DNA from: a bacterium
GTDB lineage: Bacteria; UBA8248
DNA: 64,000 bases
Direction: 5' to 3'
Assembly: GCA_963692865.2 (NCBI GenBank)
Contig: OY843592.1
Span: 416,001 to 480,000 of the forward strand
The notes under the pieces were generated by a model. The model was not told the DNA's origin. It did no database searches and worked only from the letters and a program-made list of their open reading frames with translations. Shown in pieces: positions 1,023 through 31,333 of this stretch (the stretch's first letter is position 1; each line of letters starts with the position of its first letter). Both the position numbers and the translations under genes were made by a program.

Positions 1023-1421
1023 GGGGTTGTTGAAAAACCCCGAGAGGGAGGGTTTGCCGTCATTCCGGCGCATGCCGGAATCCAGGGAATTTGTTTTTGC
1101 CTTGTCGGTTTTGGCAGTCGTTCGGCGGTGTTGCCTTCCTCGTCAGCTCTGGATTCCGGCATCCGCCGGAATGACGATCAAAAGCATATCCGCCGTAGGG
1201 ACTACGCGAGACGCGATGGTTCTGTAGGGGAGGACCTGTGTGTCCTCCCCCGCACGTCGTTTTGGTCGTGAGCCTGACGTAGGGGCGGTTCGCGAACCGA
1301 CCCTACGGTGGATGTGGGTATTGCTCGTCATTCCCTCATCTCTCAGCTTCAGCGCCGAATCACGAAATCAGGGTTTTTTACCGGTCCTCCTCGGTCAAGA
1401 CTGATTGCCAACGGGAAAATT

Positions 1422-24696: not shown

Positions 24697-26091
24697 TTAA
24701 TATGGCAATCTAACCGGCGGAGTATCATCGGGAGGATTGAGCGTAGTGTATCTCTCCGGCGCGGTTTTTCTTCGCTTCCCGCCGAATGAGCCTATAACTC
24801 CATGTTTCTCGAATACGCCCGCCACTTCACACGCCTTGCAATCGGCGGTGTTCCCGTAAAAATCCCCGTCGATGTAGCCAAGGGTAGGATGCGGGTTTTG
24901 GTTGTCCGCGTGGTTGCCGTGGCCTTTGTAGAAAAACGATCCGTCGTCGTTTTGCGGGATGTTTTCAAACTTGATGGTTTCCGGCCCCTTATAGAGCGAC
25001 CCGGATATCTCGCTAAATTCCACGTCTACTTGATGATCCTTGAAATCGTAGTTTATCGTCGCCCTGCCGTCGACGTATCCATGAACCGTAAACCCCCCCC
25101 TCTCATAATCGCGCCCGGACATGAAACCATGCCACGTTGCGCCGAGCGCCGCATCCTCCGGCGGTTTTCCTCGGTAGAGATTTCCGAATGCGGCCCCGTG
25201 AGTTTGACTCAAATATTCCCCTTGTTCCCCATATTCAAAGGTTCTAACGTAAAAGACGCTATGTTCGCCCACCCCACCCCAATATGAAATACTTTGATAG
25301 TCACCACCAGATATACTACCAGAAAGAGACGTCATCTCGTAAAATTCGTAACTCGGCTTAACTTCGTCCCGATCTAATATATGAAGAACCACGCCAATCG
25401 AAAAATCTTGTCCACCTACACCGGCAATTTGTGAATAACTCTTATAGTCAACCCCGTCAATCTCAATCCTCTTTACTGTGCATATGTTGCCGTTATGCGC
25501 GAGGCCCGGACAAGTAAGCTTTTGTCGAGCAAGCTCATGTGCGGTTATTTTTCCTTGCTCTGTTCGCATAAACTGGGTGAAACCGTTGCCATAGGTGTTG
25601 ATTTCATCCGTCATTTCAAGGTGGATAACGTCAATATCCACGTTGCTCCCGGCGATTTGATATTTCACCGGCGGGGTTGTTCCTGTAGCCGGCGGCGTTC
25701 CTCCTCCTCCGCCCGTGCCTCCGCCTGTTCCTCCGTCGGTTCCTCCGTCGGTTCCTCCGCCTGTTCCTCCGCCTGTTCCTCCGCCCGTTCCTCCGTCCGT
25801 GCCTCCGCCCGTGCCTCCTCCGCCCGTTCCTCCGCCCGTTCCTCCGTCCGTGCCTCCGCCCGTGCCTCCTCCGCCCGTTCCTCCGCCCGTTCCTCCGTCC
25901 GTGCCTCCGCCCGTGCCTCCGCCCGTGCCTCCGCCCGTGCCTCCGTCTACTATGCCTCCTCCTCCGCCCGTGTTTGCGCTACCGCCGCCTCCGCCGCAGC
26001 CGTAGAGCGCGAGGGCGCAAACCAGCGCGAAAGAGAGCAGCGCCAATGAAAGCGATTTTTTCTTCGAGGGTTGCCTTTCGAGTCGGATCAT
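24697..26091 (-). CDS. Surface lipoprotein with Gly/Thr linker and TbpB-like C-terminal beta-barrel
   Basis: Lipobox LYGC, GGGT repeats, IDGDFYG..EVAGVFE..IGSFGGKR; lower GC than its surroundings. Confidence 0.8.
   Translation of the reverse strand: MIRLERQPSKKKSLSLALLSFALVCALALYGCGGGGGSANTGGGGGIVDGGTGGGTGGGTGGGTDGGTGGGTGGGGTGGGTDGGTGGGTGGGGTGGGTDGGTGGGTGGGTGGGTDGGTDGGTGGGTGGGGGTPPATGTTPPVKYQIAGSNVDIDVIHLEMTDEINTYGNGFTQFMRTEQGKITAHELARQKLTCPGLAHNGNICTVKRIEIDGVDYKSYSQIAGVGGQDFSIGVVLHILDRDEVKPSYEFYEMTSLSGSISGGDYQSISYWGGVGEHSVFYVRTFEYGEQGEYLSQTHGAAFGNLYRGKPPEDAALGATWHGFMSGRDYERGGFTVHGYVDGRATINYDFKDHQVDVEFSEISGSLYKGPETIKFENIPQNDDGSFFYKGHGNHADNQNPHPTLGYIDGDFYGNTADCKACEVAGVFEKHGVIGSFGGKRRKTAPERYTTLNPPDDTPPVRLPY
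25697..25998. repeat. 12-bp-based tandem repeats encoding GGGT/DGGT
   Basis: CCTCCGCCCGTG/TT units. Confidence 0.95.
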
Positions 26092-26130
26092 TTCTTTCGC
26101 CTCCCCTTCTTAACCGTGAAAATTTCCGTT

Positions 26131-26277
26131 CTCCGGACCGCGGATGCAGCCGGAGCGTTTACCCGAAAAACCACGAGCAAGAAGAGATGGATTTCCCGCA
26201 GGCTCCGCTCTCCGGGGGATGGAGAGAAGCTTCTGTCCGGCGGGAAGACCGAATCGACCATCGCGGTTCTTGTGGCA
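26131..26277 (-). ncRNA. Candidate structured leader RNA, copy 1
   Basis: Multi-stem fold shared with 26608-26756 and 30660-30797; TTGACA at 26312-26307. Confidence 0.6.
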
Positions 26278-26607
26278 ATGAAAATAATTGGATATGCAGG
26301 GTGGAATGTCAAGCGCGCGTGGATGAGCAAAACGGAGAAAGTTTTTTTTGGGGGGCTTGATGTGACATGGCTGTAGATAGAGAGCGGCGGAAAAATATCT
26401 TAAAAAAAAGTCGTTTTTTTGCGCCGAAAAATCCGTTATGGTTGCATCGGGAAGTTGGGAAAATGCGTTTCGTTGTATTGGGTTTCCCGAAGTCGAGTTT
26501 CTTTTTCGCTGAAAGGGGAGGGTGATAATCGAAAAAGCCCCCGGTCGGCGATACGAGTTGAAGATGAATGGGCGGGTCCATCATTCGATGAAATGAAAAA
26601 GGTTGTC

Positions 26608-26756
26608 CCCGAACCGCAAACGCAGTCCGGGCTGTTTGCCACAAAAACCACGATCGAAGAGATGGGTTTCCCGCCTATTCCGGCCTCCAGGAGACTGGAG
26701 GCCGTGTTGTATTCGGCGGGCAGCCCGAAAGGGCCGACTGCCGTGGTTTTTGTGGC
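26608..26756 (-). ncRNA. Candidate structured RNA, copy 2
   Basis: 15-bp perfect outer stem GCCACAAAAACCACG/CGTGGTTTTTGTGGC with nested hairpins; TTGACA at 26792-26787. Confidence 0.65.
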
Positions 26757-26961
26757 GAGCAAATGATCGGGCATGGAACCCCGTCTTGTCAAACGCGCGT
26801 GGGCGGGCGAAAACGCGAAGAGAAGGGGAGTGCGCCGAAGTCGAGCCTCTTTAGAAGGCGGGGTGAGTTGTGCTAGCCTTGGACCATAGATGCCGTTTTC
26901 CGCGTTGGGTTTTCCGATGCGGTTCAGGTTTTAACAGGCATCACTATTTGGGAGCCGGACG

Positions 26962-28008
26962 ATGTTCAAGAACTTGCGGATACGCAATTTTCGCGCGTTC
27001 GACGATTTGGAGATTCCCCGCCTGGGGCTGGTCAACCTCGTTACGGGAAAGAACAACTCCGGCAAGACGAGCCTGCTCGAAGCGCTTTTCCTGTTGTGCG
27101 GCGCAGGAAATCCCGAGATGGCGTTGCGCATCAATGCGATTCGTGGAATCGACTGGGCGCAAGGTCCAACGGCGCCCGAGACGTTATGGAAGCCGACTTT
27201 CGCTGATTTCGACATGACGAGGACCGTCGAGATTGAGGGAAATTACACGTCATACGGCCCTTTGAGGTTGAGCATCGTGCTCGATCATCCGAATACCATC
27301 CAGCTTCCTTTTGAAATTTCTGACCGTACTTTGGCGGCCGGATTTCCAAACGAAAGCGAGCTCAAGTTTTCGTTCAAAAAAGGATCGGAAAACAGGGTGG
27401 AGAGCCGCATTCGCTTGGCGGGCGAAGGATTTCAGATAGACCCGCCTGTATCTCCTCTGCCGTTTCGGGCCGTGTTGCTTTCGTCTCGTACCGGGAATCT
27501 CAGAGAGGACGCCCAGCGTCTCGGGCAGCTTCGGCAACGAAAACAGGGAGAGCTCGTGGTGAATGCTCTACAAAGCGTCGAACCGAGACTGCAAACCTTG
27601 GAAGTCAATTCCGCGTCCGGCGTTCCCATGATCCGGGGCGATGTCGGCCTGTCGGAACTCGCGCCGCTGCCGATGATGGGTGAAGGCATGACGCGAATCG
27701 CGCGTCTGATTCTGGCGATCTCCGCTGCGCCTAATAGCGTGGTTCTCGTTGACGAAGTGGAAAACGGCCTGCATCACTCTGTATTGGGCAAGGTTTGGAA
27801 AGCGATTGGGGAGGCGGCCAGACAGTTCAACACGCAGGTCGTCGCGTCGACGCACAGTTTCGAGTGCATGGAGGCGGCGCATCAATCCCTCGATGCCGAG
27901 GACTTTCTCGTTCACCGGCTCGAGAACATCGACGGAGCAATACGCTGCGTCACTCTCGGACCCGACGAAATAGAGGCGACGTTCAAACACAATCTCGAGA
28001 TGCGCTAA
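26962..28008 (+). CDS. AAA_15/21 ABC-type ATPase
   Basis: GKNNSGKTS, MGEG, VDEVENGLH, STHS. Confidence 0.9.
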   Translation: MFKNLRIRNFRAFDDLEIPRLGLVNLVTGKNNSGKTSLLEALFLLCGAGNPEMALRINAIRGIDWAQGPTAPETLWKPTFADFDMTRTVEIEGNYTSYGPLRLSIVLDHPNTIQLPFEISDRTLAAGFPNESELKFSFKKGSENRVESRIRLAGEGFQIDPPVSPLPFRAVLLSSRTGNLREDAQRLGQLRQRKQGELVVNALQSVEPRLQTLEVNSASGVPMIRGDVGLSELAPLPMMGEGMTRIARLILAISAAPNSVVLVDEVENGLHHSVLGKVWKAIGEAARQFNTQVVASTHSFECMEAAHQSLDAEDFLVHRLENIDGAIRCVTLGPDEIEATFKHNLEMR

Positions 28009-28010
28009 GC

Positions 28011-28620
28011 ATGGCGCAATCAGAGCGAATTGAAAGGCCGAAGCAGCTTCTCGTCGAGGGCAACGACCAACGAAATTTTTTCGAGGCGCTCATCAAGAAT
28101 CTGTCGCTTCCTGATATTCAGATACAAAATTACGGTGGCGGTGACGAGTTGAGAGCCTTTCTGCCTGCATTTGTAAAGGCGCCGAATTTTGATTCCATCT
28201 CAAGCCTCGGTATCGTGCGCGACGCAGAAAGGTCTGCGCCGTCGGCGTTTCAGAGTGTTCAAGGTTCGCTCGGCAAGGTAAGCCTGCCCGTCCCCTCCAA
28301 GACTGGAGCGCGGCAGAGCGGGAACCCGGATGTAAGCGTGCTTATCCTGCCGGATTGAAAGTTCTCCGGGCATGCTCGAAACGCTCCTTTGCCGGACGTT
28401 TGAGGGTTCGGAGGTGGATCGCTGTATCGACGATTTCTTCGAGTGCGCGGAGGCTTCGCCGAACGTGTCCATCGCAAACCCGGACAAGGCGCGCGCCTTC
28501 GCCTATCTGACGACGACGCCCAATCCACGGCATTCCGTCGGCGTGGCGGCGCAGCAAGGCGTCTGGAATCTCGATCATGATGCTTTCGAAGGCGTGCGCG
28601 ATTTTCTGAAGGCGCTTTAG
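28011..28620 (+). pseudogene. DUF3226-like (TOPRIM-like) protein split by a frameshift near 28356
   Basis: LLVEGND..LGIVRDAE..LILPD*, then in a shifted frame ESSPGMLETL..DKARAFAYL..WNLDH. Confidence 0.75.
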
Positions 28621-28670
28621 CCACACTGGCCGCAAATCCTCCCTCCTCTGTCAGCGAACCCTCCTTTATC

Positions 28671-28964
28671 GGGGCTGTTGAAAAAGTCCTTCTCGGTCGG
28701 GTTCGATCCGCCGTCATTCCGGCGAAAGCCGGAATCCATTTTGACTTTTCACCGGGCGGACGGCCACGACTTCGTCGCTGCGCAACGCCTGAATGCGGTA
28801 TCCGCGCGGAGTGAATGGCGGCGCGTAGCCGATTCCATCAGCGGATGAAAATGGATTCCGGCTTTCGCCGGAATGACGATCAAAAGCGAAGAGCAAAACC
28901 ACCTTCCCGCATTGGGCGGCGCTCTTTGGGCATCCTTTCCCCGGAGGGTTTTTTCAACGGCCCC
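28671..28964. mobile_element. MITE-like element with nested GTCATTCCGGC palindromic pair
   Basis: GGGGCTGTTGAAAAA / TTTTTCAACGGCCCC ends. Confidence 0.65.
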
Positions 28965-29279
28965 TTCCCGGTCGCGTTTGACCTTCGGCGGCTATTCAGG
29001 GTGAGGAAAACAAAAAACACCCTTATCCCGAGTAGGGCCGCAAGGCCGTATCGAGGGACGCCGGAAAACAGCCTCCTGCCTGAAAGGCAACCCCCCTGTC
29101 CTCCCCCTTTTCAGGGGGGTAGAAGTAATGCCCATGACGAGGGGCTTTTTTAATGACCTCTCATCGGCCGGGTTCGACCCCCGTTGACACCGCGCACCCC
29201 GCGTGAAAGCATCGGGGAAACATCATCCATCCAGCGGGCGTTCGCCGCCTCCCCCCCCATTCTCGATAAGGAGAAAAAG

Positions 29280-29876
29280 ATGATTCGGCGTATCGGTCGG
29301 TGTGCGGCCGCGGCGTGTCTTGCGGTTTTCGCGGCGCTCGCGTTTTTCCCCCATCAGGCGCAAGCCGCGAATAAGGACGTCGTCTTCATCAAGGCGTTCT
29401 ATCCCCTGGACGAGCCGAGGTTCCACTGCATCGACATTCCCGGGCACCGGGACCGCGTGAGAACCACAGCCGCCCTCCTCGTCCACACCTGCAAGGAGGG
29501 CATCTGGAACCTGGACGAGCAGTTCGACCCCGCCGCCGTGGGGAAGGGCATGCTCCGGATGCCCGAATACGACCTGTGCGTCGCCGCCGCTTCCGCGGCA
29601 GACGGCGCGAAGCTGATGCTGAAAAAATGCGACGGCTCGGCGCTCCAGGACTGGCGCTTTGCGAACTACCGCTTAAGCCTCAAGGCGCATCCCGGCAAAT
29701 GCCTCACCATCGGCCCTGAACCCTCGCGCCTCACGCGGGGCGGGCGCAGGCTGCCGAGCCGCCACATGGCGCGCTCCCTCGCCCTTGAGACGTGCTCCGA
29801 AGACGCGCTCGAAAGACAGCTCTGGCGGCTGGAGAAACCCATGGAGCGCACCGGCTCCATCATGCCGTTCAAGTGA
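29280..29876 (+). CDS. Secreted ricin-B-lectin-like domain protein
   Basis: Signal peptide; repeated CID/CV/CL...C...QxW motifs. Confidence 0.7.
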   Translation: MIRRIGRCAAAACLAVFAALAFFPHQAQAANKDVVFIKAFYPLDEPRFHCIDIPGHRDRVRTTAALLVHTCKEGIWNLDEQFDPAAVGKGMLRMPEYDLCVAAASAADGAKLMLKKCDGSALQDWRFANYRLSLKAHPGKCLTIGPEPSRLTRGGRRLPSRHMARSLALETCSEDALERQLWRLEKPMERTGSIMPFK

Positions 29877-30219
29877 GGGCGATGCGCAGGCGCCGCAGGG
29901 ACGGGCCCCCGCGCCTGTCCTGTATCGGACCGACGGGCGGACACGCGGGTCCGCCCCTGCGTCTCGTTCCGCAAAGGTTGGCAGGCGGCGGTTCCTCCCG
30001 CATTGGTCGGAATCGACCTCCCTCTTCGGTCGGAACCGACTCCTCGGGAGCGCCCCACGCATATCATGCGACCCGCGTCGTGAAGGCGGAAAGGCCGGGC
30101 CGCATGATATGTCAGACATATACGTCTGACCTGCGGGCGAAAGCCCGATTGATGCGGGAGGAGCCCCTCATCGAAAGGCACCCCCCCCTACCCCCCGGCA
30201 AGGTTTTTTTCAACAACCC

Positions 30220-30580
30220 CTACCAGCGCAGCGAACCGCGAAGCGCCACGCCGTGGACGGGGCCTTCGTTCTCGCGCTCGCGCACGCAGCCCTCGACGCT
30301 CATGCTCAGGCGTTCGCCCAGTCGGTAGGCGCCGCCCGTCCTCCGAGGCCGAGAGGCCCGCGTAGGGCGTGAGCATCCCGCCCGCGCCCCAGTCGCTTAC
30401 GTGTTCCCCTTCATGCGCGAGGAGCCCGCGCGCCTTGAGCTCCAGCGTGAGGCCCGAGGCGGGGTTCGTGAAGCGGAGACTTCCGCCCGCCTCGACGCCG
30501 AGTCCCTCGTCCGCGTCGCCCCCGTCATGGCGGAGGCCCGCCTCCACCGAGGGCGTGAACGCGCCGCCGGATCCGGCGTC
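30220..30580 (-). pseudogene. Autotransporter beta-domain remnant
   Basis: TPSVEAGLRHDGGDA..GLTLELKARGLLAHE..LTPYAGL, then frameshifted HGVALRGSLRW*; no passenger domain. Confidence 0.7.
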
Positions 30581-30659
30581 TTGCGCGTTTCGCCGGGGAA
30601 CCGGACGCCGTGAAGGCGCAATCCCCCGAATCACCGCGCGAAACGGCGTCCTCGAAACT

Positions 30660-30797
30660 CCCGGACGCATCTCGGGCCGTTCGGCGCACAGTCGATGAGG
30701 GGGAATGGAGGTGGGGCTTCCGCTTTTTCGGCCCCCGGAGGAGCCGCCTCGCGTTCAGCGGAAACCCGTGAAGCAAACTTCCGTGGATTGTATGCCG
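30660..30797 (-). ncRNA. Candidate structured RNA, copy 3
   Basis: GGGTTTCCGCT/AGCGGAAGCCC stem enclosing a CGGCTCC/GGGGCCG hairpin; TTGACA at 30832-30827. Confidence 0.5.
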
Positions 30798-30845
30798 GGA
30801 ATGATCCTGGGCGATTCGGTTCGAGTTGTCAAGCGGGGATAATGG

Positions 30846-31333
30846 GGGGTTGTTGAAAAACTCCTCTCCGCCTCATCCTGAGTAGCGGCGGAGCCGCGTA
30901 TCGAAGGGGACGCCTGCTCGCCACGGCGCGGAGGGCCGGTTCCCCCACCCTTCGATACGCCCCCCGCAAGCTCGGGGCTACTCAGGATGAGGGAGGGGAT
31001 TTGGCAGGTCGAACATATATGTCCGACATATCATGCGACCCTGCTTTCGCCCATGCCGGCCATGGGCCGCATGATATGCGGCCCCTACAGGTGAAAGCCC
31101 GATTGATGCGGGGGGACCGCCTCATCGAAAGGCGCCCCCCCCCCTACCCCCCCTTGTCAGGGGTCAATTTCGAGCGATGAGCGAGAAATTGCGTACCGAT
31201 GTGTTTCTCGTCAACGGCTTATGCAAACGCTCGTTCCTCACTCGCGTTTGACCCCTGACAAGGGGGGGGTGGTTTTCTCTCTTTGTCGGAGGGTGACGGC
31301 GATGCCTTCGGCGAGGGCTTATTCAACAACCCC
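30846..31333. mobile_element. Composite MITE/REP cluster
   Basis: GGGGTTGTTGAAAAA ... TTATTCAACAACCCC enclosing a CCTCATCCTGAGTAG..CGAAGG inverted pair and other palindromes. Confidence 0.6.

Follow-up and report, generated by a model that had tools for sequence, protein, structure and literature searches.

Why should three diverged copies of a structured element, each with its own -35 hexamer, lie on one strand of a bacterial genome ahead of what appeared to be surface-protein genes? The original prediction answered with a new riboswitch-like or antitermination leader RNA controlling surface adhesins. The question is taken up here from the window, that is, the whole stretch of 64,000 nucleotides that was analysed (G000:C1:416001-480000), in whose numbering all element coordinates are given unless marked C1. 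The copies, all on the minus strand, are numbered 1 to 3, copies 1 and 2 lying in tandem and copy 3 apart (Table 1).

The copies in the window

A covariance model recovers all three elements where they had been described, and the outer stem, central stem, internal loop, variable hairpin and 3' hairpin predicted for them were all found, as was the TTGACA ahead of each copy. With the upstream CTTGACA included, the copies align over 241 columns at 74% mean column identity. A scan of 25900-31000 for sigma-70-like sites gave only two, those of copies 1 and 2 (10/12 each; mean of 1.0 site in shuffles), and did not pick up the -10 of copy 3 (CAGGAT). Minus-strand folding is better than in shuffled sequences for copy 2 (z -9.14, 0/200) and copy 1 (z -3.00, 0/200), and not for copy 3 (z -0.53, 58/200). 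Copy 2 is the only canonical copy in the window; copies 1 and 3 are divergent variants in which the conserved loop deviates, with a degenerate pseudoknot in copy 1 and, in copy 3, a first pseudoknot pair that is C-G against G-C in the consensus. Copy 3 is further a near-twin of a copy elsewhere in the genome that precedes the gene of an fn3-repeat protein of at least 2022 aa.

The genes behind these copies are less clearly identified than had been supposed. Copies 1 and 2 serve a single lipoprotein gene, copy 2 being without an ORF of its own, and no Pfam or NCBIfam family was found for the product; its naming as TbpB-like has as sole likeness an Atlas feature similarity of 0.90-0.92 to TbpB_B_D-bearing clusters. 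Nor could the autotransporter remnant proposed after copy 3 be confirmed, the frames there being broken and Pfam and NCBIfam giving no match.

Table 1. Features of the three copies and their genes in the window; pairings marked (s) were read from the sequence.
Feature	Position	Strand	Details
Copy 2 -35 hexamer TTGACA	26787..26792	-	10/12 promoter match with GATCAT, spacer 18
Copy 2 -10 hexamer GATCAT	26763..26768	-	predicted start ~6 nt downstream, first bases of P1
Copy 2 leader RNA, canonical	26624..26757	-	covariance-model match, 111.6 bits
Copy 2 P1 5' strand GCCACAAAAACCACG	26742..26756	-	
Copy 2 pseudoknot 5' strand UUCGGGCUG	26721..26729	-	family consensus GUCGGGYNN; pairs 9/9 with 26626-26634 (s)
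Copy 2 P2 5' strand CCCGCC	26715..26720	-	
Copy 2 conserved internal loop, 5' side, GAAUACAACAC	26704..26714	-	
Copy 2 P3 hairpin GGCCUCCAG-UCUC-CUGGAGGCC	26682..26703	-	
Copy 2 conserved internal loop, 3' side, GGAAUA	26676..26681	-	
Copy 2 P2 3' strand GGCGGG	26670..26675	-	
Copy 2 pyrimidine-rich joining stretch J AAACCCAUCUCUUCGAU	26653..26669	-	CCC can alternatively pair with GGG of pseudoknot strand
Copy 2 P1 3' strand CGUGGUUUUUGUGGC	26638..26652	-	
Copy 2 pseudoknot 3' strand CAGCCCGGA	26626..26634	-	
Copy 2 hairpin CCCGGACUGC-GUUU-GCGGUUCGGG	26608..26631	-	overlaps pseudoknot 3' strand
Copy 1 promoter TTGACA-17-AATTAT	26284..26312	-	
Copy 1, divergent copy	26148..26277	-	74.7 bits; loop GGACAGAAGC / GGAGCC; 5/9 pseudoknot positions still pairable
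Copy 1 J stretch CCAUCUCUUCUU	26179..26190	-	11/12 (G-U counted) complementary to Shine-Dalgarno region 26100-26111 (s)
Copy 1 3' hairpin GCUCCGGCUGC-AUCC-GCGGUCCGGAG	26131..26156	-	
Copy 1 Shine-Dalgarno region AAGAAGGGGAGG of lipoprotein gene	26100..26111	-	
464-aa lipoprotein gene (lipobox LYGC, Gly-rich)	24697..26091	-	served by copies 1 and 2
Copy 3 -35 hexamer TTGACA	30827..30832	-	
Copy 3, divergent copy	30669..30797	-	covariance-model match, 90.0 bits; loop GAACGCGAGG / CGAAAAA
Copy 3 pseudoknot 5' strand CACGGGUUU	30762..30770	-	7/9 pairs with 30671-30679 (s)
Copy 3 pseudoknot 3' strand CGGCCCGAG	30671..30679	-	(s)
Broken coding remnant after copy 3	30188..30670	-	160-aa ORF, C-terminal part in different frame

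Fold, spread and gene context of the family

The leader RNA, predicted to be about 120-150 nt long, folds into a helix P1 of 14-15 bp at the predicted 5' end, followed by P2 and the hairpin P3, which flank an asymmetric conserved internal loop (GAAUAMAANA / GRAAUAN), and a 9-bp pseudoknot in which GUCGGGYNN just 5' of P2 pairs with NNRCCCGRC just 3' of P1. The pseudoknot had been absent from the fold as first described. Among 13 copies from the own genome, double changes occur at 20/28 predicted pairs, bearing out the compensatory changes seen in the window. Across 88 distinct distant sequences, evaluated against 500 shuffles and slid controls, covariation is strong: 94.2% of cells hold a pair as against 69.5% in shuffles, the covariation score is 0.592 as against 0.183 (a value that 0/500 shuffles reach; slid controls, 0.046-0.072), and P1 has double changes at all 15 pairs. 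The pseudoknot covaries though it was left out of the model used to fit the alignment (column 54:223, CG 34, GC 25, UG 8; column 55:222, GC 48, AU 6). Since two pseudoknot positions have U-G as their most frequent pair, the structure is strand-specific, as had been argued. The conservation of the loop in the distant set holds by construction, because the pattern with which these copies were collected demanded it.

To speak of a local three-copy motif understates a family that spans many phyla. The own genome (4.15 Mb) holds 16 covariance-model matches (E up to 0.004), and copies are present in 20/22 congeners and in 24/51 genomes of the phylum searched, the own genome included. A loose pattern scan of named genomes yielded full-length matches in 18/80 loci. 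As titled, these MAGs and isolates belong to many unrelated groups: Alpha- and Gammaproteobacteria, Latescibacterota, Binatia, Acidobacteria/Terriglobia, Gemmatimonadota, Boseongicola and Sphingomonas. Metagenomes contribute 74/80 loci with matches, on at least 74 contigs, and at three of the metagenome loci (L197, L209 and L265) close tandem copies precede a single ORF, an arrangement that recalls tandem riboswitches.

The copies come shortly after a predicted promoter of their own and stand before genes for exported or surface proteins, which bears out this part of the original prediction. In the genus, 35/45 distinct copies have a promoter match of at least 9/12 within 55 nt (control stretches, 0/32), and in 31 of these 35 there are 5-6 nt between the end of the -10 and the model start; from the placing of each genus copy's sigma-70-type promoter, the transcript is predicted to begin with the first bases of P1. 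A strong sigma-70-like site was seen in only 11/84 distant copies. Most copies lie 20-110 nt upstream of a same-strand ORF preceded by a Shine-Dalgarno (SD) sequence, and most of these ORFs start with a signal peptide, lipobox or membrane helix. In the own genome, signal-peptide or lipobox ORFs directly follow at least 8 of the 16 copies; in the distant set, which was collected by pattern and may not represent the family as a whole, a hydrophobic 12-mer lies within the first 60 residues encoded by the first SD-preceded ORF in 52/92 cases, against 17% of 2985 crude genes of the own genome, gene calls and hydrophobicity test being crude alike. The encoded proteins are mutually unrelated, and 37/50 are without a Pfam family. 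The ORFs after many short-form copies have 32-45 residues, most of which make up one membrane helix, and the same leader also stands before lipoproteins of several hundred residues and the protein of at least 2022 residues. Surface adhesins is thus too narrow a description for a heterogeneous set of exported proteins and small membrane peptides.

Relation to known RNAs

An Rfam search gave no family at threshold for the motif, which supports its separation from c-di-GMP-I and ydaO. The original prediction, which recognised no known family in it, stands to that extent only, as the core (pseudoknot helix, P2, loop and P3) is the same as that of sRNA-Xcc1 (RF02221), a known but little-understood RNA, in a match below threshold. 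This was the only consistent weak match, and at 19.5-23.8 bits against a cut-off of 53 the motif is not an RF02221 member by Rfam's rule. The three best RF02221 matches in the own genome are three copies of the motif, copy 2 being third (19.5 bits); in the other direction, the covariance model of the motif finds 1/15 true Xcc1 copies (16.8 bits). The two RNAs have in common a 5-6 bp helix, the loop AAUACAAnA / GAAUA, a small hairpin and an ACC tail, and both lie at or near the 5' end of the transcript (the start being predicted for the leader), mostly shortly upstream of an ORF. The closing helix of sRNA-Xcc1, GNCNGGNNN/NNNCCNGNC, corresponds to the pseudoknot of the leader RNA. Where sRNA-Xcc1, of ~88 nt, has a local third hairpin, the leader has the 3' strand of P1, paired with a 5' extension, so that the closing helix becomes a pseudoknot and the RNA grows to 120-150 nt. 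Further, the 3' platform of sRNA-Xcc1 is a separate hairpin after the closing helix, whereas that of the leader overlaps the pseudoknot strand, and the contexts differ, sRNA-Xcc1 standing ahead of symE within integron cassettes, of an ORF6N gene in the APSE phage and of prophage antirepressor-like genes, and the leader ahead of exported-protein genes.

Other systems offer partial likenesses. The c-di-GMP-I (GEMM-I) riboswitch is a leader, at times tandem, whose downstream genes are a very mixed set of surface, secreted and phage-related ones, and may be compared in outline of gene context and tandem copies; there is no sequence or structure match to it, nor any Rfam match even at E up to 10. 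Riboswitches such as SAM-II and preQ1-II use a pseudoknot to mask or expose the ribosome-binding site, and the leader would resemble them in having the pseudoknot 3' strand beside the expression platform and in its likely translational control. Its fold and conserved bases are unrelated to theirs, however, its SD lies outside the pseudoknot, and its moving parts would be a separate hairpin and an anti-SD-like joining stretch. Type I toxin mRNAs also have structured 5' leaders, and the short-form copies before small membrane-helix ORFs, like Xcc1 before symE, recall them; the same leader before large lipoproteins and the protein of at least 2022 residues does not.

A proposed switching leader and its alternatives

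The 3' hairpin of copy 2 re-uses the 3' strand of the pseudoknot, and the two are therefore mutually exclusive. The pseudoknot 3' strand can pair with downstream sequence in 69/85 distant and 33/46 genus copies; when the downstream sequence is shuffled, the background is already high, at 46%. In copies other than copy 2, J is complementary to the SD region. Across the family, J pairs with its own SD region at -9.13 kcal/mol and with those of others at -8.2 (0/2000 permutations as low). The signal is modest: among the distant copies no more than 57% do better than their own shuffles, and in that set J1, the other joining stretch, pairs with the SD as well as J does. Antitermination finds no support, a U-run rarely following the 3' hairpin.

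It could be argued that these are free-standing, trans-acting small RNAs whose position before genes is secondary, as sRNA-Xcc1 is annotated. Gene-less copies fit such RNAs: no gene lies behind copy 2, behind 6/92 distant copies, or behind the own-genome copy C1:570803-570932 and its orthologues, and this copy, which the genus conserves best of all, follows a strong promoter and in most species has no conserved ORF within ~500 nt. sRNA-Xcc1 is reported as a discrete band of ~100 nt with mapped ends and a length of 88 nt (PMC2996969), and in Xylella it is regarded as an sRNA that acts in trans and may be linked to Hfq (PMC12189769). An attenuated or processed leader would likewise give a short RNA on a blot, however; the 15 bona fide sRNA-Xcc1 copies too lie mostly ~40 nt upstream of an ORF, and the placement before SD-preceded ORFs, the strong exported-protein bias and the missing U-run terminator after most copies make a purely trans-acting role rather unlikely. 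A possible, if somewhat doubtful, reading is a cis-acting leader bound by a protein or another RNA, for instance a global RNA-binding protein, in place of a small molecule. Protein- or RNA-based control is usual in prophage antirepressor and symE settings, relatives of the leader stand before antirepressor-like genes beside isrK and C4 RNAs, and the genes downstream of the leader are non-metabolic, with export signals as their only common feature. Relatives also precede symE, as reported in bioRxiv 10.1101/2025.06.18.660453. Against a partner of this kind, the very strongly conserved loop by the pseudoknot, the occurrence in many phyla, the tandem arrangement and the diversity of 3' platforms resemble what is seen in known metabolite aptamers, and no candidate protein was seen to co-occur within the material examined.

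That the RNA is a constitutive 5' structure, stabilising the mRNA or aiding translation or targeting of exported-protein messages with no switching, would agree with P1 at the predicted 5' end, like protective 5' hairpins, and with an association by product class and not by pathway; yet a protective hairpin needs no invariant loop, covarying pseudoknot or competing hairpin, and this role is distinctly improbable. A mobile repeat (MITE/REP-like) or a single-stranded-DNA recombination site of the integron attC kind is very improbable indeed. The motif is multi-copy, sRNA-Xcc1 is found in integron cassettes, and in two congeners a variant is located at the end of a repeat that is 1.3-1.7 kb long, contains an HTH_17 gene and is 93-97% identical from copy to copy, but per-column identity among the copies of a single genome is only 51-56% while every helix is kept through compensatory changes, with the promoter on the same side (in nearly all genus copies), an ORF after it on the same strand and a bias in gene class. 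Neither terminal inverted repeats beyond P1 nor, on reading the P1 ends, RYYYAAC/GTTRRRY boxes were found, and viral contigs rarely carry the motif (four stretches fit the tight pattern).

Overall, the family is probably a widespread cis-acting, riboswitch-like 5' leader that switches between a pseudoknot, a competing hairpin and an anti-SD stretch; we infer the regulation in cis, the switch and the existence of a ligand. Such a leader would act on the following gene through mutually exclusive pairings: the pseudoknot may form, the downstream hairpin may take over its 3' strand, or the pyrimidine-rich J may find a partner in the GGG of the pseudoknot strand or in the SD region. Binding of a ligand or factor that locks the pseudoknotted core would then determine whether the ribosome-binding site is accessible.

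A covarying, pseudoknotted RNA family

The three related minus-strand elements named in the original prediction are present in the window (74% mean column identity over 241 columns, promoter included), together with the stems named for them and a TTGACA ahead of each, and the structured RNA family to which they belong is real. A profile search followed by a covariance model, R1, built on 13 copies from the genome that contains the window, gives 16 copies in that genome (4.15 Mb). Within the genus the motif, which is 118-149 nt long, occurs in 20 of 22 species with 1 to 17 copies each, and across the 51 genomes searched for the whole phylum, which has a single class, it is found in 24 genomes and 4 of 15 genera. 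The scan of named genomes is unfit for counts per phylum, its pattern being loose and its returns mostly noise; 18 of its 80 loci are true, with full-length R1 matches (E from 5e-13 to 1e-5), and their record titles name Alpha- and Gammaproteobacteria, Latescibacterota, Binatia, Acidobacteria/Terriglobia, Gemmatimonadota, Boseongicola and Sphingomonas natans. A tighter pattern matches at least 120 metagenome stretches, with an R1 match in 74 of 80 loci among the matches listed (78 matches in total), and only four viral contigs.

The predicted fold begins with an outer helix of 14-15 bp (P1) and continues with a second helix (P2) and, beyond a conserved loop, a hairpin (P3). The 13 copies used for R1 are only 51-56% identical per column, and RNAalifold predicts 28 pairs among them with compensatory changes in 20. 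The structure count covers 88 distinct distant sequences, in which standard pairs fill 94.2% of cells (69.5% in shuffles), double changes occur in all 15 P1 pairs, and the covariation score is 0.592 against 0.183 in shuffles, none of 500 shuffles being as high; with slid partners the score falls to 0.046-0.072. In the distant sequences GUCGGGYNN directly 5' of P2 is complementary to NNRCCCGRC directly 3' of P1, and positions 7-9 of this pseudoknot co-vary (UGG/CCA, CGG/CCG, UCG/CGG, CUA/UGG, UAG/CUA, CCU/AGG), as do alignment columns 54:223 (CG 34, GC 25, UG 8) and 55:222 (GC 48, AU 6). The alignment was fitted to the R1 helices and thus favours P1, P2 and P3; the covariation of the pseudoknot is independent, because the pseudoknot is absent from R1. 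At two pseudoknot positions U-G outnumbers every other pair, and therefore the signal belongs to the motif strand. Loop conservation in the distant set proves nothing, because the collecting pattern demands a conserved loop; the genus set, collected by the model alone, has the same conserved loop. The helix P2a, a GGG paired with the CCC of a joining stretch, which RNAalifold had put into R1, was dropped from the main fold because the same G's form the covarying pseudoknot in distant copies; it is a possible alternative pairing only.

The canonical copy in the window is copy 2, with pairing at 9/9 positions of the pseudoknot (UUCGGGCUG with CAGCCCGGA), and its minus-strand RNA folds far better than shuffles (z -9.14). 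Copy 1, with an altered loop and pairing possible at only 5/9 pseudoknot positions, folds moderately better (z -3.00). Copy 3 pairs at 7/9 positions, with C-G in place of the consensus G-C as the first pair; its loop has become GAACGCGAGG / CGAAAAA, and its folding is no better than that of shuffles (z -0.53). The copy 3 leader and a further ~100 nt match the leader of an fn3-repeat protein gene at 778 kb of contig C1, so that the copy 3 locus has the look of a leader duplicate fused to a truncated gene. Neither the ORF 3' of copy 3 nor the window lipoprotein matches a Pfam or NCBIfam family.

Motif copies and other features with coordinates, in the window, on contigs C1 and C5 of the same genome, and in collected loci (L numbers)
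Feature	Sequence	Position	Strand	Remark
Copy 1	window	26148-26277	minus	TTGACA at 26312
Copy 2	window	26624-26757	minus	TTGACA at 26792
Copy 3	window	30669-30797	minus	TTGACA at 30832
Coding remnant 3' of copy 3	window	30220-30672	minus	frame switch; one frame open for 151 codons, last ~60 codons in another frame, ending ...GVALRGSLRW-stop
Short intergenic GC-rich repeats	window	~28715-28745 and 28855-28880		
Short intergenic GC-rich repeats	window	~29020-29090 and 30860-30990		
Best-conserved genus copy	C1	570803-570932	minus	near-perfect promoter, TTGACA-17-CACTAT
Truncated variant	C5	13475-13559	plus	
Truncated variant	C1	359258-359340	minus	
Paired copies	L244	10811-11292		
Paired copies	L197	1274-1544		
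Paired copies	L209	669-949		
Paired copies	L265	735-981		
Group II intron	L098, alphaproteobacterial MAG	1077-1300		D1-D4, 172 bits; 2.6 kb upstream of a motif copy

Promoters and downstream genes

The motif lies between a predicted promoter and an ORF preceded by a Shine-Dalgarno (SD) sequence. A consensus scan of window positions 25900-31000 finds only two sigma-70-like sites, at copies 1 and 2, each matching 10/12. In the genus, 35 of 45 distinct copies carry a promoter match of at least 9/12 no more than 55 nt upstream (controls, 0/32 stretches), and in 31 of these 35 the -10 element ends 5-6 nt ahead of the model start; P1 should therefore begin the transcript. At the same promoter score, distant copies give only 11/84 (controls, 1/77). 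A conserved, covarying, aptamer-like fold in a 5' untranslated region, one of the generic marks of a riboswitch, is found here with a predicted start site, and the RNA family is very probably a cis-acting leader.

In the genome of the window at least 8 of the 16 copies stand directly before ORFs that carry a signal peptide or lipobox. These encode the window's Gly-rich lipoprotein (464 aa), two further lipoproteins (one of 599 aa and a GH113-like one of 787 aa), a Sel1-repeat protein, three small secreted ORFans and an fn3-repeat protein of at least 2022 aa. A hydrophobic 12-mer occurs within the first 60 residues of the first SD-preceded ORF in 52 of the 92 distant copies whose flank is long enough, several of the misses being visibly wrong ORF picks; the same crude measure gives 17% of 2985 genes as the baseline in the genome of the window. 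Beyond this the proteins show no kinship: 37 of 50 are without a Pfam family, and the rest include matches to ankyrin, CsgG, rhodanese, SNase, LRR/M66, matrixin, TM2, RecT and, weakly, TbpB_B_D. Overall, the downstream genes have export signals in common and little else. A subgroup with a short P3 often stands ahead of ORFs of 32-45 residues that consist mostly of one membrane helix and bring type I toxins or small membrane proteins to mind; in eight metagenome loci (L191, L226, L229, L238, L253, L254, L268 and L190) such an ORF begins ~10-40 nt downstream.

Several copies have other surroundings. There is no gene behind copy 2 of the window, and no conserved ORF behind the best-conserved genus copy or its orthologues (L054-L065, L072, L073 and L075); a terminator scan 3' of this orphan copy found none. 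Some 60 nt past it, the P1 3' strand recurs as a second GGAUUGUAUGGG, a possible competitor for the P1 5' strand. The two truncated variants keep the core and are without P1 and the pseudoknot 3' strand, with a local hairpin in their place, and each lies 67 nt upstream of one of two paralogous proteins (381/392 aa) that have neither a signal peptide nor a Pfam family. Of the four pairs of copies on one contig, one is divergent, each copy being ahead of its own exported-protein gene, and three are close tandems ahead of a single ORF.

Relation to sRNA-Xcc1 and to mobile elements

At the gathering score, Rfam has no match at the motif in the window or at the motif in 18 distant loci, and in E-value mode on 25900-31000 it returns only two chance-level matches. 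The original view that this is neither a c-di-GMP-I nor a ydaO/c-di-AMP aptamer agrees with the Rfam 15 models (c-di-GMP-I/II included), which are unmatched, and its suggestion of a new family with the absence of any family at threshold; besides weak matches to RF02221 (sRNA-Xcc1), only chance-level ones were seen. RF02221 is the sole family that recurs on short stretches (23.8, 23.2 and 23.5 bits; gathering score, 53), and its best three matches in the whole genome of the window are motif copies, copy 2 among them (23.5, 19.7 and 19.5 bits).

The family sRNA-Xcc1 was reportedly defined by Chen et al. in 2011. Its relation to the motif is one of shared core and differing frame. Both have a closing helix, GNCNGGNNN / NNNCCNGNC (model positions 1-9 and 71-79), around the core, which covaries in the 88 distinct sequences, as well as a second helix, a small hairpin and an ACC tail in the alignments. 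Both also have the internal loop AAUACAAnA / GAAUA between two short helices, in copy 2 and most genus copies, whereas it is altered in window copies 1 and 3. On the other hand, the motif falls below 53 bits and is not a member by score, and its 3' platform differs. sRNA-Xcc1, which measures ~87 nt from the closing helix, has a second, local hairpin that separates the core helix from the closing-helix 3' strand; here, the P1 3' strand, paired with a 5' extension, stands in that place, and the closing helix crosses P1. P1 makes the closing helix of the motif a pseudoknot, and this sets the two architectures apart. True sRNA-Xcc1 members, found in 15 of 20 viral-contig loci at 57.7-75.7 bits, are ~85 nt long with the local third hairpin present, and lie mostly ~40 nt upstream of ORFs that by eye resemble prophage antirepressors, near isrK and C4 RNAs; R1 recognises 1 of these 15, at 16.8 bits. 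In L377, L356 and other viral loci, isrK and C4 antisense RNA genes stand a few hundred bases upstream of sRNA-Xcc1, and antirepressor-like ORFs begin just downstream of the same copies. Bases flanking the closing-helix 3' strand of the viral copies (e.g. UUCUGAA ... UUCAGAA) covary, forming a further long-range helix.

Passages of earlier work describe sRNA-Xcc1 as an 88-nt RNA seen on Northern blots (PMC2996969), and place it before symE in the integron cassette most widespread in Xanthomonas (bioRxiv 10.1101/2025.06.18.660453), in seven copies in Xylella (PMC12189769) and ahead of an ORF6N gene in APSE phages (bioRxiv 10.1101/2020.03.17.996009). Its contexts are an integron cassette, a transposon, a plasmid or a prophage, before symE, ORF6N or antirepressor-type genes, whereas in the window a lipoprotein gene and a broken remnant follow the copies and the family as a whole precedes exported-protein genes. 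The motif is of the sRNA-Xcc1 kind but of a new, pseudoknotted form, and is linked to genes for exported proteins. No description of this form was found in the literature searched or in the main texts of the motif-discovery papers PMC5737381, PMC11109978 and PMC8632094, which do not contain 'secreted', 'signal peptide', 'lipoprotein', 'exported' or 'extracellular'; their supplements could list the motif.

A MITE, REP or other mobile-element identity, which the original prediction had set against its own reading, is rejected for the family: at 51-56% column identity the copies are diverged and compensated, and they are consistent in promoter side and ORF strand. An integron attC site likewise does not fit, as in the window sequence the P1 ends are without R''(RYYYAAC) ... 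R'(GTTRRRY) boxes and the centre, variable in attC, is the most conserved part of the motif. In five loci of two congeners (L421-L425; G002, G013) a motif variant stands at one end of a 1.3-1.7 kb repeat, in copies 93-97% identical, with an HTH_17 gene on the opposite strand and differing sequence past the motif; this repeat may be a mobile module. The short intergenic repeats of the window, one GGAATCCGGCTTTCGCCGGAATGAC-like in inverted pairs and the other ...TCGATACG...CTACTCAGGATGAGG-like, look like REP-type elements.

A proposed switch and its significance

The pseudoknot 3' strand doubles as the 5' arm of a hairpin with the following sequence in 69 of 85 distant and 33 of 46 genus copies (46% with shuffled downstream sequence). 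Most copies lack a terminator U-run, and there is no case for termination because a U-run seldom follows this hairpin. J, the pyrimidine-rich stretch between P2 and the P1 3' strand, often matches the SD region beyond the core SD (CCUCUCC with GGAGAGG; CCCCUU with AAGGGG; CACCCU with AGGGUG; in copy 1, CCAUCUCUUCUU with AAGAAGGGGAGG). J pairs more stably with its own SD region than with a mismatched one (-9.13 vs -8.2 kcal/mol; 0/2000 permutations as low), and 16 of 80 own pairs are in the top tenth, a modest effect, the other joining stretch pairing equally well in the distant set. Further, the CCC of J can alternatively pair with the GGG of the pseudoknot strand, the helix that RNAalifold drew first. 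From these competing pairings, which may be the expression platform of a riboswitch, we infer a switch. With the pseudoknot formed, J would be released and could mask the ribosome-binding site; with the pseudoknot open, the downstream hairpin and the J-GGG pairing would form instead. This direction is a guess, as is a ligand that might act on the switch.

It is conceivable, if rather doubtful, that the core (pseudoknot or closing helix, P2, the GAAUAMAANA/GRAAUAN loop and P3) serves as the aptamer in a riboswitch class not yet described, which perhaps senses a signalling molecule. In many phyla the pseudoknotted form would then control genes for secreted, lipoprotein and membrane products, and the compact form, sRNA-Xcc1, would control prophage antirepressors and symE-type toxins. 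Were this shared-core riboswitch reading true, window copies 1 and 3, with their altered loops, would be specificity variants or decayed copies.

The family is a large, well-conserved leader RNA of many bacterial phyla that curation has missed, and the genes to which it is tied form one striking class, with products that leave the cytoplasm. It also allows sRNA-Xcc1, annotated in many genomes as a trans-acting, virulence-linked sRNA, to be read anew, as it appears to be one form of a broader family of cis-leaders. The altered copies 1 and 3 offer natural variants for tests of specificity. A ligand or binding factor, should there be one, would be a regulatory input common to surface-protein genes, prophage switches and toxin genes.
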